Shown piece after piece: positions 28,545-64,000 of a stretch of DNA of 64,000 nucleotides. A program made the translations under genes and the position numbers. The stretch spans positions 608,001-672,000 of the forward strand of contig JBEKFP010000001.1 of the NCBI GenBank assembly GCA_050013255.1. Reading direction: 5' to 3'. The notes beneath the pieces were generated by a model. That model was not told where the DNA came from. It was given only the letters and a program-made list of their open reading frames with translations, and did no database searches. Every line of letters starts with the position of its first letter. The stretch's first letter is position 1. This stretch comes from Candidatus Bathyarchaeia archaeon. Lineage in GTDB: Archaea > Thermoproteota > Bathyarchaeia > 40CM-2-53-6.

Positions 28545-29219
28545 TTAGGAAGGGGGAGCCAGTTCTAGGACTTCCAGTTCTGAATTCCTCCTTAGGCGCA
28601 TATCAAAGACTTCTTCGAAATTCCTGTGCACTTCATTCTTGACAAGGCCGAAGTCCATCTCCCTACTAAGTAGAGCTTTCATTGAGGTCATCGTTGAGCC
28701 TGGGAATCCACAAGGGGTTATCATCTGGAAATAATTCAGGTCGGTGTTTACATTGAGTGCGGCTCCATGGAAGGTAACCCAGTTTCGAACTGCCGCTCCG
28801 ATTGAAGCTATCTTCTTTCTGCCAACCCAAACGCCCGTCTGCTCTCCGCGCTCTCCGGCAATTCCGAACTTGGCGAGGGCCCGGATTAGCGTCTCCTCGA
28901 TGTTCCGGAGAAACCCATGGATGTCCCGCTGGCGTGCATTTAGGTCTAGGATCGGGTACCCGACCAACTGGCCCGGGCCATGGTAAGTCCATTGGCCGCC
29001 TCGCTCTATCCTGAAGACCGGGACACCCTCCACGGTTGCTGGGACTTCGCCTGCAATGCCCTTCCCCACTGTGAAAACATGCGGGTGCTCCACCAACACT
29101 AACGTGTCCGGTATGGCTTTCTTAACTCGAAGCTCGAGCAGCTTGCGCTGCAGGTTCCAGACTTCCGCGTAATCCCGCGAGCCTAGGTCTAGGAGATTTC
29201 CTTCGATTGTTGTAGGCAT
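28545..29219 (-). CDS. lipB: Lipoyl(octanoyl) transferase
   Basis: EHPHVFT, RGGQWTYHGPGQLVGYP, KIASIG, PCG. Confidence 0.92.
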   Translation of the reverse strand: MPTTIEGNLLDLGSRDYAEVWNLQRKLLELRVKKAIPDTLVLVEHPHVFTVGKGIAGEVPATVEGVPVFRIERGGQWTYHGPGQLVGYPILDLNARQRDIHGFLRNIEETLIRALAKFGIAGERGEQTGVWVGRKKIASIGAAVRNWVTFHGAALNVNTDLNYFQMITPCGFPGSTMTSMKALLSREMDFGLVKNEVHRNFEEVFDMRLRRNSELEVLELAPPS

Positions 29220-29830: not shown

Positions 29831-31222
29831 TTACTTTTGTAGAATATGAATTGCTTTTCCTTTTGCGGCTTCCGCGGCTTCCATGATGCTTTCCGGCAAG
29901 GTTGGGTGTGGGTGTACTGTCAATCCAATGTCCTCCAAGGTCGCGCCCATTTCAATCGCCAGCGCAGCCTCGCTGATCATATCCGACGCTTCGGCGCCAA
30001 CAATGTGAACGCCCAGAACAATGTCTGAACTTTTGTCCGCAACTATTTTCGCGAAGCCCTCGGTTTCTCCGGCGAGCATTGCGCGGCCCAGAGCTGTGAA
30101 AGGAAACTTTCCAACAATTGGATCATAGCCCTTCTCTTTTGCTTGAGCTTCAGTGAGGCCAACCGTTGCAATTTCGGGGTCCGAGAATATTACGCCGGCG
30201 ATCGCGCGGAAGTCTGCTTCACTGTTCATGCCTGCGATGGCTTCGGCTGCTACGATGCCTTGCTTCGAGGCTTTGTGGGCTAGCATTGGTGGGCCGACTA
30301 TGTCGCCTATGGCGTAGATGCCGGGCACGTTGGTTTGCATTTTCTTATCGACCTGAATGAAACCGTGGGCATCTGTCTTCACGCCGGTCGCTTGCAGTCC
30401 AATCTGGTCGCTGTTCGGGCGCCTTCCCACCGTAACCAAGACTTTGTCAGCATCGAACGCCGCTTCCTTGCCGTCTTCCAATTCAGCGTAAACTTTCCCG
30501 CCGCGAAATTCTTTAGCCTTCGATTTTACGTGGTAATCCACGCCAAGTTTGCGGAGGGAACGTTCTACGACTCTCACTAGTTCTATGTCCGTTCCTGGGA
30601 GAAGTTGCTCCAACATTTCGATAATCGTGACCTTGCTTCCGAGTTGGGTGTACATGGTTCCCATTTCTAACCCCGTGACGCCTCCGCCGATTATGACGAG
30701 GTTCTTTGGGATCTCTTGAAGCGCGAGGGCTTCGGTTGAGCTGATTATGCGTGTCCCATCAAACCTGAAGGTGGGAAGGTCGAAGTAGCGTGAGCCAGTA
30801 GCTATCACAACATCCTTTGTCTCTATGCTTTCGATCCCAGCGGTGGTCTTCACTTCAAGTTGCTTTGGGCCTGTGAAGGTGCCTACTCCCTTGATGATTT
30901 TGACATTATTCCCCTTGCACAGGTATTCGACGCCTTGCGTTAGCCGGTCGACTACGCTCTGCTTCCACGCCTGCACCTTAGGAAAATCGACCTTAAGGCC
31001 GGTCACTTCGAGGCCGATCTGTTTGGCGGCTTCGATCCTCTTCTTCAGTTTAGCTACGCGGATGAGCGCTTTGGAGGGGATGCATCCTATATTCAAACAA
31101 ACTCCGCCGAGTTGATCCTTTTCGATTAGAGTTGTTTCTTTCCCAAGCTGGCCTAGCCTGATGGCGGCTACGTACCCGCCCGGTCCTGCTCCGAGAACGA
31201 CAACTTCTGTTTTCTGCGCCAT
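29831..31222 (-). CDS. lpdA: Dihydrolipoyl dehydrogenase (E3)
   Basis: GGVCLNIGCIPSK, HPHPTL.E. Confidence 0.96.
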   Translation of the reverse strand: MAQKTEVVVLGAGPGGYVAAIRLGQLGKETTLIEKDQLGGVCLNIGCIPSKALIRVAKLKKRIEAAKQIGLEVTGLKVDFPKVQAWKQSVVDRLTQGVEYLCKGNNVKIIKGVGTFTGPKQLEVKTTAGIESIETKDVVIATGSRYFDLPTFRFDGTRIISSTEALALQEIPKNLVIIGGGVTGLEMGTMYTQLGSKVTIIEMLEQLLPGTDIELVRVVERSLRKLGVDYHVKSKAKEFRGGKVYAELEDGKEAAFDADKVLVTVGRRPNSDQIGLQATGVKTDAHGFIQVDKKMQTNVPGIYAIGDIVGPPMLAHKASKQGIVAAEAIAGMNSEADFRAIAGVIFSDPEIATVGLTEAQAKEKGYDPIVGKFPFTALGRAMLAGETEGFAKIVADKSSDIVLGVHIVGAEASDMISEAALAIEMGATLEDIGLTVHPHPTLPESIMEAAEAAKGKAIHILQK

Positions 31223-36111: not shown

Positions 36112-37044
36112 TCAAGCTAGAGCGTGTAGTCTCTTCTTACGTATCAGTGCTTCAACGAAGAATTCACCAGCTCTATACGAGCTGCGAACGAACGGGCCTG
36201 AAGCCACGTACAAGAATCCGAGTTCTTCAGCCAAAGTCTTGTAGTGTTCAAACGTTTCCGGGCTAACGTACTCGGTGACAGGGATATGGCCCCTGGAGGG
36301 TCGAAGGTACTGGCCTAAGGTCAGGATATCCACATCAACATCCCGTAGGTCCTTCATCGCTTTGACGAGATCGCCCTCAGTCTCGCCTAGGCCAAGCATA
36401 ATAGACGATTTCGAATAAACCGTCGGATCCAATTCCTTGATTCCCTTCAGAACCCAGAGGGATTGCTTGTATGTTGCCCTCGGGTCGCGAACCTTTGGCG
36501 ACAGCGGTTCCGTGGTTTCTATGTTGTGGGCTACGACTTCGGGAGCTGCGTCAACAACTTTCTTCACGTCATCAAGATTTCCCTGGAAATCAGGAATCAA
36601 CACTTCCGTAATCACGTTCGGGTCTTGCTGTTTGATGGCCTTGATCGTTGACGCGAAGTGGCCTGCGCCGCCGTCGGGAAGGTCGTCGCGGTCTACGGAC
36701 GTTATCACCACGTACTTCAAGCCCAAATGGGCAATCGTCTTAGCGACGTTCACGGGCTCAAAAATGTCCAGTAACCCGTGCGGGTTTCCGCTCTTAACCA
36801 TGCAAAACCGGCAGCCCCGCGTACAAGTGTCGCCCATTAGCATGAAGGTGGCTGTCCCACCACCCCAGCACTCCGCCACATTGGGGCAGTGCGCTTCCTC
36901 GCAAACCGTGTGAAGGTTGTGGTTTCGAAGGACGTCTTTAATTCTCTCATAATTCTGGCCAGTGGGATACTTCACACGTAGCCACTCAGGCTTCTCGGCA
37001 CCCTGAGTTTCTTGAATTTGCAGGACGTGTGAATAACGGGGCAT
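36112..37044 (-). CDS. lipA: Lipoyl synthase
   Basis: CEEAHCPNVAEC, CTRGCRFC, RSSY. Confidence 0.96.
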   Translation of the reverse strand: MPRYSHVLQIQETQGAEKPEWLRVKYPTGQNYERIKDVLRNHNLHTVCEEAHCPNVAECWGGGTATFMLMGDTCTRGCRFCMVKSGNPHGLLDIFEPVNVAKTIAHLGLKYVVITSVDRDDLPDGGAGHFASTIKAIKQQDPNVITEVLIPDFQGNLDDVKKVVDAAPEVVAHNIETTEPLSPKVRDPRATYKQSLWVLKGIKELDPTVYSKSSIMLGLGETEGDLVKAMKDLRDVDVDILTLGQYLRPSRGHIPVTEYVSPETFEHYKTLAEELGFLYVASGPFVRSSYRAGEFFVEALIRKKRLHALA

Positions 37045-60959: not shown

Positions 60960-60995
60960 AAAGCAATATTAAGAATGGGACAAGTGCCCCGCAAC

Positions 60996-61337
60996 ATGCC
61001 CAGGATCAAAACTCGGAGTTCACGAACCGTTCAATTGTATTCTGAACGGCACATCAACAATGAACGGGACCTCCTAGACTTCATAGAAGCGCTGGACGAG
61101 GATGAAGGGGTTAGAATCGAAGGAAACATCAAGAACCATGAAAACGGCGGCTTCGTATTCGTCGGAACCTACAGGGGCAGCTACTGCGTCAACATATGCG
61201 ACAAGGTGTGGGCCCCAAAGCTGAGACAGTACGTACCCGGCGGAAGAGATGAGTGGTACTACTTCGACAAGGGCAAAGAAGCATTCCGCTTCGTCTTGAA
61301 AGAAGCAAAAAGGCCCCTACGAGCTTGGCTATACTAG
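60996..61337 (+). CDS. Hypothetical protein
   Basis: Protein-like composition; TATA-like TATTAA at 60967-60972. Confidence 0.65.
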   Translation: MPRIKTRSSRTVQLYSERHINNERDLLDFIEALDEDEGVRIEGNIKNHENGGFVFVGTYRGSYCVNICDKVWAPKLRQYVPGGRDEWYYFDKGKEAFRFVLKEAKRPLRAWLY

Positions 61338-61462
61338 TGCGGGAAGAGTTCCCGCGCTCATGGCGGACATACAATGGCTTGCTGCAAAGGCATCGGCCAT
61401 TAGGCTTCGCCCAGCATTCTCAACGCAAACGAACAATATTTTCTTGTTTTTGACGTCGGATT

Positions 61463-62281
61463 TCATGTTTCCTTCACCTTAATGCTGCTTCCTTGCTCTG
61501 AGGTCTTCCCGTATCTGTGGGCAGTGATCTCTGCCATTATGCTGAGGGCTATTTCGGCAGGCGTTCGGGCTCCTATGTCCAGACCTATGGGCGCCTTGAC
61601 TCTTGCCAGTAGCTCGTTTGATACGCCCTGCTGTTTCAGGTGAGAGAAGGTCGCTGCGACCTTTTCTTTGCTTCCTATCATGCCAATATATCCCGGAAGC
61701 AATTTCTTTGAGAGGCATTCCTTCAAGACAACCTCGTCATGCTGATGCCCACGAGTGACCATGACAACGCAGTCTTCCGCATGAAAATCCATTGACTTGG
61801 CCGCTCCAACGAAATCGCCCAACTTCACCTCATCAGCTAGAGGAAAACGCTTCCTGTCGGCGAAATCCTCTCGATCGTCAACAACGATTACAGCGAAATC
61901 AAGTGCCTTAGCGAACTCGACAAGAGGAACAGCAATATGTCCTCCGCCGAAAACATACATTGTCGAGGTACCCAAGATTGGTTCCACAAAGACCTTCACC
62001 TTCCCACCGCAAAGTACACCAATGCCATCAGCGCTTTGATCATCAAGCGTTAACTCCAGCAACCTTGGCGTCCTATCATGTAGGCACCGCAAACCTTCTT
62101 CTCGAATCTTCGCTTCAAGCAATCCCCCTCCAACCGTGCCCAGGATCGTGCCGTCAGCATAGACGAGCATACGGAACCCGGTCTTCCCCGGAGCCCCTCT
62201 TTCACCACCCACCACTGTTGCAAGAGAAGCTTTGGAACGTTCTCGCCTTATCCGTGCAATCTCTTCGAAAATATCAGGCAC
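61463..62281 (-). CDS. xdhC: XdhC/CoxF molybdoenzyme maturation factor
   Basis: GTVGGG..E, CGG, FGGGH, TRGH..D, GMIGS, PIGLDIGA.TP.EIA. Confidence 0.92.
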   Translation of the reverse strand: MPDIFEEIARIRRERSKASLATVVGGERGAPGKTGFRMLVYADGTILGTVGGGLLEAKIREEGLRCLHDRTPRLLELTLDDQSADGIGVLCGGKVKVFVEPILGTSTMYVFGGGHIAVPLVEFAKALDFAVIVVDDREDFADRKRFPLADEVKLGDFVGAAKSMDFHAEDCVVMVTRGHQHDEVVLKECLSKKLLPGYIGMIGSKEKVAATFSHLKQQGVSNELLARVKAPIGLDIGARTPAEIALSIMAEITAHRYGKTSEQGSSIKVKET

Positions 62282-62300
62282 TTTGACCCATCAACTTCAG

Positions 62301-62726
62301 TCATGGTTCGCTCTCAATGGTTGGTTCGATTAGGACTGGTGGCTTTATCGAATTTGCAATCAAGCTGTACTTGCGAGCCCAATCAAGCGCCTTTCCCACT
62401 CGCTCAACGGATTCTGTCTTGACTTTAATTTTGGGTTTGAGAATGGTCTGGGTGAATGTGGAAGTCCGGTCTAGCAGATCCACTACGTGGCCTTCAGCTT
62501 CGCATTCATAAGAAACGAGTTGAATCTTCAACCGTTCAGCAGCCCAGATGAACATCATGTGAAAGCATGTGTTCAATGCCGCGACGTAAGCATCTTCGGG
62601 CGTCATGACTCCATAACGACCTTGAAGGGCTGGAGGTGCAGAGAAGCTCATGTTTGTGCCATTGCCGCAAGCTAGCTCTCCGTCGTGGCCTCCTGTCCAG
62701 ACTACCTTCGTTTTGTATACTGGCAA
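62301..62726 (-). CDS. OsmC/Ohr family protein lacking the second conserved Cys
   Basis: TPED...AL.TC; YSLIANSI where YC.I.NS is usual. Confidence 0.8.
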   Translation of the reverse strand: MPVYKTKVVWTGGHDGELACGNGTNMSFSAPPALQGRYGVMTPEDAYVAALNTCFHMMFIWAAERLKIQLVSYECEAEGHVVDLLDRTSTFTQTILKPKIKVKTESVERVGKALDWARKYSLIANSIKPPVLIEPTIESEP

Positions 62727-62730
62727 CCAT

Positions 62731-63147
62731 CTACACCCAGTGTCTTAGAACTTCGTCGACTTCTTCAGCGATCCTGTCAGCAACTTTTCGTGTAACCGTT
62801 AGGGTCTCATCGTTCAGTTTGCGACGAGTACCGAGCCTTGGACACTGCCAGTTCTTCAATATGTCAGTGACGACGATTGATGACGCCGGTTTTCCACTGT
62901 AGCGCTCCGTAGCGGTCTTGGCGCACATCCTGTCGCATCCGTCAACCGTAATTGTTGGGTAGTCTCGTGCGAAGTCTCTCTCTTCTCTACCTCCTGCGAG
63001 GAACAATGGAAGACAGATCGTCACAGTTTCATTTGGTTTCAGCTTTCCTAAGACTAAGCGTGTAGCTACTCGTGACATTGTACCTTCAACGCACTCTTCT
63101 CCGCTGCAGGATATGATGCCAACTTTCTTCTCTTGCACTTCAACCAT
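62731..63147 (-). CDS. DGC domain putative zinc-binding protein
   Basis: CSG, TICL, VDGCDRMCA. Confidence 0.85.
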   Translation of the reverse strand: MVEVQEKKVGIISCSGEECVEGTMSRVATRLVLGKLKPNETVTICLPLFLAGGREERDFARDYPTITVDGCDRMCAKTATERYSGKPASSIVVTDILKNWQCPRLGTRRKLNDETLTVTRKVADRIAEEVDEVLRHWV

Positions 63148-63566
63148 TATTGTCCCACCACCAAGTTGTCCACCTGTTTGGCAATTTTCTCAGCAAGCGC
63201 CAACGCCATCTGCTGACCGTCGGGATCGAGGAAGGTAACACCTCTCGGTTTCAGATGCCTGTTTTCCTTGTAAACGTCAACCACTCGGACACTTCCGGCT
63301 AGATCACCGCCAGCGAGCTTGACGTTTTTCTCAGCGCACTGAAGTGGGCATCCGTCAACCGTAATGCACTTGTGGTTACGCACAAGCTGCAGAGATTCCT
63401 CGTCCCCACTCACAAGCAATGCGAGACATAGGGTCTGCGTGCCGTCTCTGCGAAGGTTTTCAGTGACCTCGTAAGTTGCGTCTCGGGCTATGCTTCCGAA
63501 TGCCTTACCGATTCCGCTGCATGGTATTACAATCACTTTCTTCTGATTTGGACTGTCCATTTTCAT
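63147..63566 (-). CDS. DGC domain putative zinc-binding protein
   Basis: PCSG, TLCL, VDGCPLQCA. Confidence 0.85.
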   Translation of the reverse strand: MKMDSPNQKKVIVIPCSGIGKAFGSIARDATYEVTENLRRDGTQTLCLALLVSGDEESLQLVRNHKCITVDGCPLQCAEKNVKLAGGDLAGSVRVVDVYKENRHLKPRGVTFLDPDGQQMALALAEKIAKQVDNLVVGQ

Positions 63567-64000
63567 CTGGACTCCAGTTTGTCATGTCCGCTTTGCAGCT
63601 TTTCGAGCATCAACTTGTAATAATCGTCGGCACTCAACAGTGATGTACGGTCATCATCGAGGTTGCGTGGGGCGATGACAACCAGCCAGCCCTCTCCATA
63701 AGGATCGGAATTAACCAGCTCAGGCTTTCCAATGAGCTTGCTGTTCGTATCCTCAAGTTCTCCTGACATTGGGGAGAGTAATGCTACAGTCGTTTTTGCG
63801 CTCTCCATGGTCCCAAGCTCTTGGCCTTTCTCAACTGTCGAACCTGGTTTTGCTACTTCAACAAATGCTACATCGCCCGATGTCTTCTGAAGGTAGTCGC
63901 TCACTCCAACCTTCGCTTTGCCATTCTCGACACTGACCCAGAGGTCATCTTTTGTGTAGTAGAACCCTTTGCGCACCCGCAGCTCGAACTTGTCGTAGGT
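63563..64000 (-). CDS. gcvH: Glycine cleavage H-like lipoyl carrier, 5'-partial
   Basis: GVSDY, ESAK lipoyl-Lys, SP.SG, N.DPYGEGW; frame open to the window end. Confidence 0.88.
   Translation of the reverse strand, partial: TYDKFELRVRKGFYYTKDDLWVSVENGKAKVGVSDYLQKTSGDVAFVEVAKPGSTVEKGQELGTMESAKTTVALLSPMSGELEDTNSKLIGKPELVNSDPYGEGWLVVIAPRNLDDDRTSLLSADDYYKLMLEKLQSGHDKLESR

Follow-up and report, generated by a model that had tools for sequence, protein, structure and literature searches.

Lipoyl carrier, DGC-domain and OsmC-like genes in an ars operon of a Bathyarchaeia archaeon: a possible thiol-disulfide relay

Described lipoyl relays and the Bathyarchaeia locus

Relays that lead through a lipoyl-bearing protein to a terminal thiol enzyme have been described from several organisms. 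That of Mycobacterium tuberculosis runs through Lpd, DlaT(SucB), AhpD and AhpC, and a lipoyl-dependent Ohr was reportedly described by Cussiol and colleagues in 2010. Here, we analyze a locus that resembles such relays in part and is encoded among arsenic resistance (ars) genes: a GcvH-like lipoyl carrier, two DGC-domain proteins (DGC1 and DGC2) and an atypical OsmC-like protein, which together we call the module, followed by an XdhC-family protein. These five genes lie at the end of a 64,000-nucleotide stretch (the window) of the genome of a Candidatus Bathyarchaeia archaeon (contig JBEKFP010000001.1, C1:608001-672000), and the next 16 kb beyond the edge was also examined (L001, in which a coordinate equals the window coordinate minus 60000). 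Like the mycobacterial relay, the module is predicted to follow a four-tier logic of NADH, dihydrolipoyl dehydrogenase (E3), lipoyl protein, small Cys adaptor and terminal thiol enzyme. The mycobacterial adaptor, however, is AhpD, an all-helical protein with a CxxC motif, the lipoyl donor is a metabolic E2, and there is no link to arsenic, whereas here the adaptor would be a flavodoxin-like DGC pair with sites of three and four cysteines (Cys3 and Cys4), served by a dedicated carrier.

Two described systems use H-proteins in comparable ways. The hydrogenosomes of Trichomonas vaginalis contain a peroxide reductase made up of L-protein, H-protein and OsmC (Nyvltova et al. 2016, as summarised in PMC7946386). 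There, as predicted here, electrons from E3 reach an OsmC-fold protein by way of an orphan H-protein that has no part in glycine cleavage. As described there, the Trichomonas system has no DGC protein, a canonical two-Cys OsmC, peroxide as the shown substrate and no arsenic regulation. In contrast, the locus studied here has two DGC genes inserted, an OsmC-like protein with His in place of Arg and a relocated second Cys, and an ars-operon setting. In Staphylococcus aureus, GcvH-L is a stress-linked lipoyl carrier that works with LplA2, SirTM and Macro under ADP-ribosylation control (PMC12440151). It is likewise a second GcvH paralogue outside glycine cleavage, and its lipoyl group takes part in stress resistance, but the stress is oxidative rather than arsenical, and none of the LplA2, SirTM and Macro partners occurs at the module.

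The locus also resembles ars operons that carry thiol accessories (ArsD, ArsE thioredoxin with ArsG permease, or thioredoxin-coupled ArsC). It shares with them an ArsR with a CxC site, Acr3, ArsM and ArsC, and in other genomes ArsE- and ArsG-family genes stand beside the module. In the ars-operon literature that we searched, no lipoyl carrier or OsmC-fold protein was reported, and a DGC protein appeared once (in P. mercurii ND132). A search for DGC, lipoyl carrier/gcvH or OsmC linked to arsenic operons found no description of the module.

We consider the best explanation to be an arsenic-induced, lipoyl-based thiol-disulfide relay encoded in an arsenite-inducible operon, the promoter of which would be shared with a divergent ArsR-ArsC pair. 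We assign this explanation, taken as a whole, a probability of roughly 45%. If the relay is real, it would provide a function for the DGC domain and for an odd OsmC subfamily, as well as a new use of protein-bound lipoate. It would also explain how arsenic is moved or reduced in glutathione-free anaerobes, including Bathyarchaeia and Anaerolineae. Both groups occur in large numbers in peat, sediments and aquifers, settings in which the mobilisation of arsenic is of concern. Few detoxification systems have been mapped as well as arsenic resistance, yet at least 590 stretches in species-representative genomes carry this block, its hosts, which number in the hundreds, being uncultured archaea and bacteria.

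The ars operon and the distribution of the module

Five minus-strand open reading frames (ORFs) occupy the last 2.5 kb of the window. From the carrier to XdhC, the first two junctions between them are overlaps of 4 bp and 1 bp, and the last two are gaps of 4 bp and 19 bp. These are the junctions given by an earlier reading of the window made from its letters alone (the sequence-only reading), and Pfam confirms every family that it had named (Table 1). Past position 64000, where that reading had advised looking, we found a zinc-ribbon ORF, Acr3, ArsM and the divergent ArsR and ArsC genes. The five genes thus form the distal end of an ars operon that runs from ArsM through Acr3, the zinc-ribbon micro-protein, the GcvH-like carrier, DGC1, DGC2, the OsmC-like protein and XdhC to a remnant of arsC. 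The ArsR protein has the motif ELCSCE, which is the CxC arsenite site known from type-1 ArsR, and is encoded near an arsenite exporter, with ArsM-like and ArsC-like genes adjacent. The ArsM-like protein has the CC...CC, NCVLN and ACISG cysteines, and the Acr3 candidate scores slightly below the TIGR00832 cut-off of 282.8 bits. The 69-bp divergent promoter region contains a palindrome, ACATAT-N12-ATATGT, which is a candidate operator. As the 2.46-Mb genome has a single Acr3, the probability of meeting one in any given 16 kb by chance is less than 1%.

Table 1. Coordinates of genes at and near the module. Window positions count from the first letter of the 64,000-nucleotide stretch; L001 positions refer to the adjoining sequence.
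Feature	Position	Strand	Evidence
GcvH-like lipoyl-carrier paralogue	window 63563-63976 as called, open to window's end (64000)	-	PF01597 GCV_H, 5e-34
DGC1, DGC-domain protein, 139 aa	window 63147-63566	-	PF08859, 7e-16
DGC2, second DGC-domain protein, 138 aa	window 62731-63147	-	PF08859, 1.5e-16; 1-bp overlap with DGC1
Atypical OsmC-like protein, 141 aa	window 62301-62726	-	PF02566, 1.5e-11
XdhC-family protein, 272 aa	window 61463-62281	-	PF02625 XdhC_CoxI, 1.6e-16; PF13478 XdhC_C, 1.2e-44
Truncated arsC remnant, 45 codons	window 61329-61466	-	tblastn match to intact ArsC of the same locus
Zinc-ribbon micro-ORF, 49 codons	L001 4018-4167 (18-167 bases past window's end)	-	CPRC...CMDC; unannotated
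Acr3 (SBF-family transporter)	L001 4241-5314	-	best NCBIfam match acr3 TIGR00832, 259.1 bits
ArsM (arsenite-methyltransferase-like)	real ATG at L001 6181	-	NF008823, 252 bits
ArsR, then ArsC	beyond ArsM, across the 69-bp region	divergent	HTH_5 and ELCSCE (ArsR); low-molecular-weight phosphatase fold (ArsC)
Lipoyl synthase LipA	window 36136-37008	-	TIGR00510, 404.8 bits (cut-off 310.25)
E3-type flavoprotein disulfide reductase, dimerisation domain; open frame 489 aa	window 29873-30202	-	PF02852, 1e-41; candidate reductase for the lipoyl arm
LplA/LipB-type lipoyl(octanoyl) transferase catalytic domain	window 28617-29174	-	PF21948, 7.8e-47

The zinc-ribbon micro-ORF, which lies between Acr3 and the carrier, has the core LRKxTCxxCGKxYWTNxExxxCxDCE, and its stop codon (TGA) overlaps a TTG start of the carrier. 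This TTG, 21 bases past the window's end (window-equivalent 64021, L001 4021), is probably the true start of the carrier; it is favored because the resulting 152 aa match the lengths of the orthologues and because of the overlap with the micro-ORF stop. A tblastn search detected the micro-ORF in both archaea and bacteria, in 42 of the 120 loci retrieved (some of them duplicates); it usually opens the module and precedes the gene for E3 or the carrier. At the other end of the operon, the arsC remnant has 67% identity (tblastn) to residues 3-38 of the intact ArsC at the locus. It keeps the phosphatase loop CVENAGRS (CX5R), after which it ends at a stop codon, and the remainder of arsC is missing. 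The stop codon of XdhC and the ATG of the remnant share bases (ATGA), so that the two are translationally coupled. A 120-aa ORF on the plus strand (60975-61337) adjoins the remnant. Specific to this copy of the module are the archaeal host, the addition of XdhC, the decayed arsC and the translationally coupled zinc-ribbon ORF.

Among 301 sampled Bathyarchaeia genomes, 72 have DGC genes, mostly as adjacent pairs. Within this genus, only 1 of 13 further genomes carries them, and the module is therefore accessory. In forty loci around Bathyarchaeia DGC genes, the arrangement GcvH-like/DGC/DGC/OsmC-like occurs in several families, nearly always near Acr3, ArsR, ArsC or ArsM. We also scanned one genome per species with an alignment of DGC1-type sequences, as the whole-family DGC alignment is too diverse to serve as a search seed. 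The scan returned at least 590 stretches; the counts that follow are from the best 80 loci, which are biased towards DGC1-like modules by the choice of seed. They come from Bathyarchaeia, Nitrososphaeria, one Sifarchaeum, many Chloroflexota, Bacillota, one Desulfaltia, one Myxococcota and one Pseudomonadota. The order GcvH-like/DGC1/DGC2/OsmC-like is kept in 61 of the 80, in Bathyarchaeia and Chloroflexota plus single loci of Nitrososphaeria, Thermodesulfobacteriota, Pseudomonadota and Myxococcota. The conserved neighborhood of gcvH, DGC and osmC that the sequence-only reading had asked about is thus borne out. ArsR is encoded in 62 of the 80 loci and at least one of Acr3, ArsC and ArsM in 48 (37 of the 52 that are 10 kb or longer). 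About 20 loci encode an ArsE-family thioredoxin (TIGR00412, 111.8 bits versus a cut-off of 62), often immediately downstream of the OsmC-like gene, and 12 encode an ArsG-family permease. The recurrent small neighbors of the module match no NCBIfam model.

In a tree of the concatenated proteins, the Chloroflexota form a clade apart from the Bathyarchaeia clade, the Desulfaltia locus is nested within the latter, and the Pseudomonadota locus is its sister. This pattern suggests mainly vertical inheritance inside each phylum, along with occasional transfer or, possibly, errors of binning. The Desulfaltia locus is on a 4.9-kb contig of Candidatus Desulfaltia (DATKWY010000027.1, L086), and its position inside the Bathyarchaeia clade has strong local support; either inter-domain transfer or a mis-binned contig would account for it.

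A second layout was also observed, in which three to five tandem DGC genes are followed by a GcvH-like gene, without OsmC (L046, L047, L057-L061, L093, L103, L104, L107, L117, L119, L130, L136 and L137). A small 4Fe-4S ferredoxin gene comes before it, and a Redoxin-like gene, an ArsG-family permease gene and small ORFs come after it.

Carrier, DGC proteins and OsmC-like protein

The carrier is, as judged from its sequence, a GcvH paralogue and not a subunit of the glycine cleavage system. It scores 106.8 on the gcvH equivalog model TIGR00527 of NCBIfam (cut-off, 115.85) and is 41% identical to the canonical GcvH of the genome. The sole GcvT match lies 208 kb away, adjoining that canonical, better-scoring copy, so that the sequence-only reading was right to see neither gcvT nor gcvP in view, and neither is directly upstream. 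A canonical role in glycine cleavage was rejected on these grounds. Over the 59 orthologue sets for which residue conservation was computed, the lipoyl Lys, K61 in the numbering of the 137-aa call, is invariant (59/59). Lipoylation of the carrier is plausible, as the genome encodes LipA and two LplA/LipB-type proteins, the second of which is on contig 3. There are also two E3-type genes by Pfam, 33 kb and 383 kb from the module. LipA, one LplA/LipB-type gene and one E3-type gene are all within the window, where they had been placed before, at 25-35 kb from the module.

According to a recent preprint, the GcvH-like LbpA proteins act in sulfur oxidation (bioRxiv 10.64898/2026.10.01.755906), and the carrier could similarly accept sulfane sulfur, as in sHdr/LbpA, for example from thioarsenates, which dominate in sulfidic peat and sediment, and so enable arsenite export. 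The hosts do come from anoxic, often sulfidic habitats, and a DsrE-like gene lies near one locus. However, the loci examined show no recurring genes for sHdr, TusA or rhodanese, the carrier reaches 45 bits on the GcvH_rel_desulf model against a cut-off of 150 bits, and this sulfur or thio-arsenic chemistry is wholly inferential. We regard it as very unlikely.

Both DGC proteins score above the PF08859 cut-off and have the DGC motif and the four family cysteines, as had been noted from the sequence. In DGC2, all four (C14, C45, C71 and C75) are invariant in 59/59 orthologues; in DGC1, C16, C73 and C77 are invariant in 59/59, and C47 is kept in 32/59. The AlphaFold2 (AF2) model of DGC1 is a small flavodoxin-like alpha/beta domain (mean predicted local distance difference test [pLDDT], 93), in which the conserved cysteines come after strands 1, 2 and 3, at the start of the next helix. 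Given the usual geometry of this fold, they would share one edge of the sheet. A profile search of the DGC proteins against the PDB gave no match, Foldseek gave none at an E value of 0.001 or below, and NCBIfam has no model for either protein.

The arrangement of cysteines in DGC1 raises the possibility that the carrier, the DGC proteins and the OsmC-like protein simply bind As(III) or methyl-As(III), acting as a decoy that shields essential dithiol cofactors and perhaps handing arsenic over to Acr3 or ArsM, as ArsD does to ArsA, with no redox turnover. DGC1 has exactly three invariant cysteines, at the C-terminal ends of three parallel strands in the model, and three is the usual coordination number of As(III) in ArsR, ArsD and ArsM. 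The vicinal dithiols of lipoate are a classic target of arsenite, and Acr3 precedes the module in many loci. In contrast, the dedicated E3 and the ArsE-type thioredoxins of many loci point to redox cycling, an OsmC-fold enzyme with retained active-site Cys and Glu would be superfluous for binding, and stoichiometric binding would offer little protection under sustained exposure. We therefore consider sequestration quite unlikely.

The DGC family as a whole, beyond the module, tracks ArsR-type clusters, and we suspect that ArsF of the ArsEFG system may be a further DGC protein. In Pseudodesulfovibrio mercurii ND132, a DGC protein is encoded in an ars cluster of the ArsR/ArsP/thioredoxin type as an unexplained gene (bioRxiv 10.1101/2022.10.17.512643). 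Distant-type DGC genes, single or paired, were found with ArsR, an ArsP_1-type permease, a small thioredoxin and an RnfB/CdhC-type Fe-S protein (PF04060) at L052-L054, L066, L067, L070-L072 and L074. The DGC2 proteins of Chloroflexota are about 240-260 aa long, with a C-terminal extension of about 100 residues that has no Pfam match (L106, L109, L112, L113, L129, L146 and L155).

The OsmC-like protein departs from known peroxidases in its active site. Its nearest relative among solved sequences is 2onf (Ta0195; 4e-8), and its NCBIfam scores are well below every curated cut-off. In the AF2 model (pLDDT, 94.9), C54 is in helix 1 (residues 43-65), ten residues after Glu44, as in Ohr; C54, C75 and Glu44, the last within a P-E motif, are invariant, the two cysteines in 59/59 orthologues. 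The fold and the peroxidatic Cys/Glu of an OsmC/Ohr peroxidase are thus present, but the Arg and the C-terminal resolving Cys are absent. In the N-terminal loop, the catalytic Arg of Ohr is replaced by His14 (conserved in 90% or more), which gives GGHDG where Ohr has GGRDG. At the site of the resolving Cys, which is Cys in Ohr, 2onf and 2d7v, there is an invariant Ser121, as the sequence-only reading had observed, and C75 is a new invariant Cys relative to Ohr/OsmC.

These residues bear on the simplest alternative, in which a lipoyl-dependent hydroperoxide reductase of the OsmC/Ohr type clears the peroxides of arsenical stress and makes no contact with arsenic itself. In its favor, helix 1 still has the peroxidatic Cys, preceded at a distance of ten residues by the Glu; peroxidase relays of the E3/H-protein/OsmC and Lpd/lipoyl-E2/AhpD/AhpC kinds are known; and 10 of the 80 loci have an E3 gene next to the module. 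However, the exchange of Arg for a conserved His, and of the resolving Cys for an invariant Ser accompanied by C75, weighs against a peroxidase of this type. Most hosts are anaerobes, the genetic link is with ArsR and Acr3 rather than with regulators of oxidative stress, known relays need no DGC pair, and the variant with three to five DGC genes and a carrier has no OsmC at all. Given the ArsR/Acr3 setting, the altered OsmC site, the Cys3 site of DGC1 and the OsmC-less variant, we consider a plain peroxidase less likely than arsenic chemistry and, in itself, unlikely.

A possible arsenic relay and the place of XdhC

In the arsenic-induced relay that we favor, dihydrolipoyl dehydrogenase, the gene for which stands next to the module in some bacteria but away from it in the genome studied here, would reduce the lipoyl group on the dedicated carrier. 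The dihydrolipoyl arm would then exchange with the clustered Cys3 (DGC1) and Cys4 (DGC2) sites, and the DGC proteins, in turn, with C54 and C75 of the OsmC-like protein. This would serve arsenic defence in one of two ways: ArsC, ArsM and Acr3 would receive reducing power or thiols that carry As(III), or As(III) would be stripped from dithiol targets. Like lipoylation, the order in which electrons or arsenic would be transferred and the nature of the terminal substrate are what we infer, whereas the gene content and order, the invariant residues and the linkage to ars genes and to E3 were observed directly. A relay from E3 through lipoyl-H and the DGC pair to OsmC had been proposed in the sequence-only reading. 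Its order is strengthened by the conserved arrangement of the genes and by the presence of E3 beside the module in other genomes, mostly directly before the carrier gene (TIGR01350, 502 bits versus a cut-off of 408.8), but the general redox or sulfur-transfer setting envisaged there gives way to one among ars genes.

Several observations weigh against the arsenic-induced relay. About 40% of the loci have no Acr3, ArsC or ArsM within reach, although many of these contigs are short. There are 220 bp between Acr3 and the carrier gene, and co-transcription is assumed from the micro-ORF that fills them. ArsR-family repressors sense other metals and redox signals too. The genome studied here has no module-linked E3 gene; the closer of its two E3-type genes is 33 kb away. 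The comparison of the DGC1 fold by VIA-align found a generic alpha/beta resemblance (3pu6, Z 8.8; HybD protease, about 7) and no functional match. Finally, canonical LipA was found in just 36 of the 301 Bathyarchaeia genomes, and in 0 of the 71 sampled from a family in which the module is common. The LipA-bearing genomes include all 13 other members of this genus, and the LplA/LipB-type catalytic domain is found in 284 of the 301. As canonical LipA is so rarely found, most of the class, and many hosts of the module, must make or salvage lipoate by a LipA-independent route.

A more far-reaching form of the relay is possible, if doubtful: lipoate, the classic target of arsenite, may have been recruited as a defence against it. 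The E3-reduced carrier would capture As(III) or methyl-As(III), or reduce As(V), and pass arsenic or electrons to the DGC proteins, as a new As(III)-binding family, and to a re-tooled OsmC-fold enzyme. Were this true, glutathione-free anaerobes would have a protein-borne dithiol pathway that feeds Acr3, ArsM and ArsC, the DGC domain would have its first function, and a new branch of arsenic resistance would be added to those described.

The sequence-only reading had suggested instead that the relay serves, through XdhC, the maturation or repair of an enzyme with a molybdenum or tungsten cofactor. XdhC is co-directional with the OsmC-like gene and begins 19 bp after it, XdhC-family genes occur within about 8 kb of the module in 5 of the 80 species loci, and radical-SAM genes resembling a tungsten-cofactor maturase occur in 8. 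Arsenite is, moreover, a classic inhibitor of molybdenum hydroxylases. However, XdhC directly follows the OsmC-like gene only in this genus (L037/L077) and one sister genus (L041), the core module is equally conserved without it, and no molybdo- or tungsto-enzyme gene was identified among the neighbors scanned at the locus. The XdhC protein also scores below both curated cut-offs (NF045664 XdhC_rel_AOR, 259.7 versus 350; TIGR02964, 102.9 versus 161.6). We thus do not retain a role in molybdoenzyme maturation, which we regard as highly improbable; as judged from its distribution, XdhC is a lineage-specific addition to the operon. A second XdhC paralogue, 35% identical to the first, is encoded elsewhere in the genome (C1:979366).

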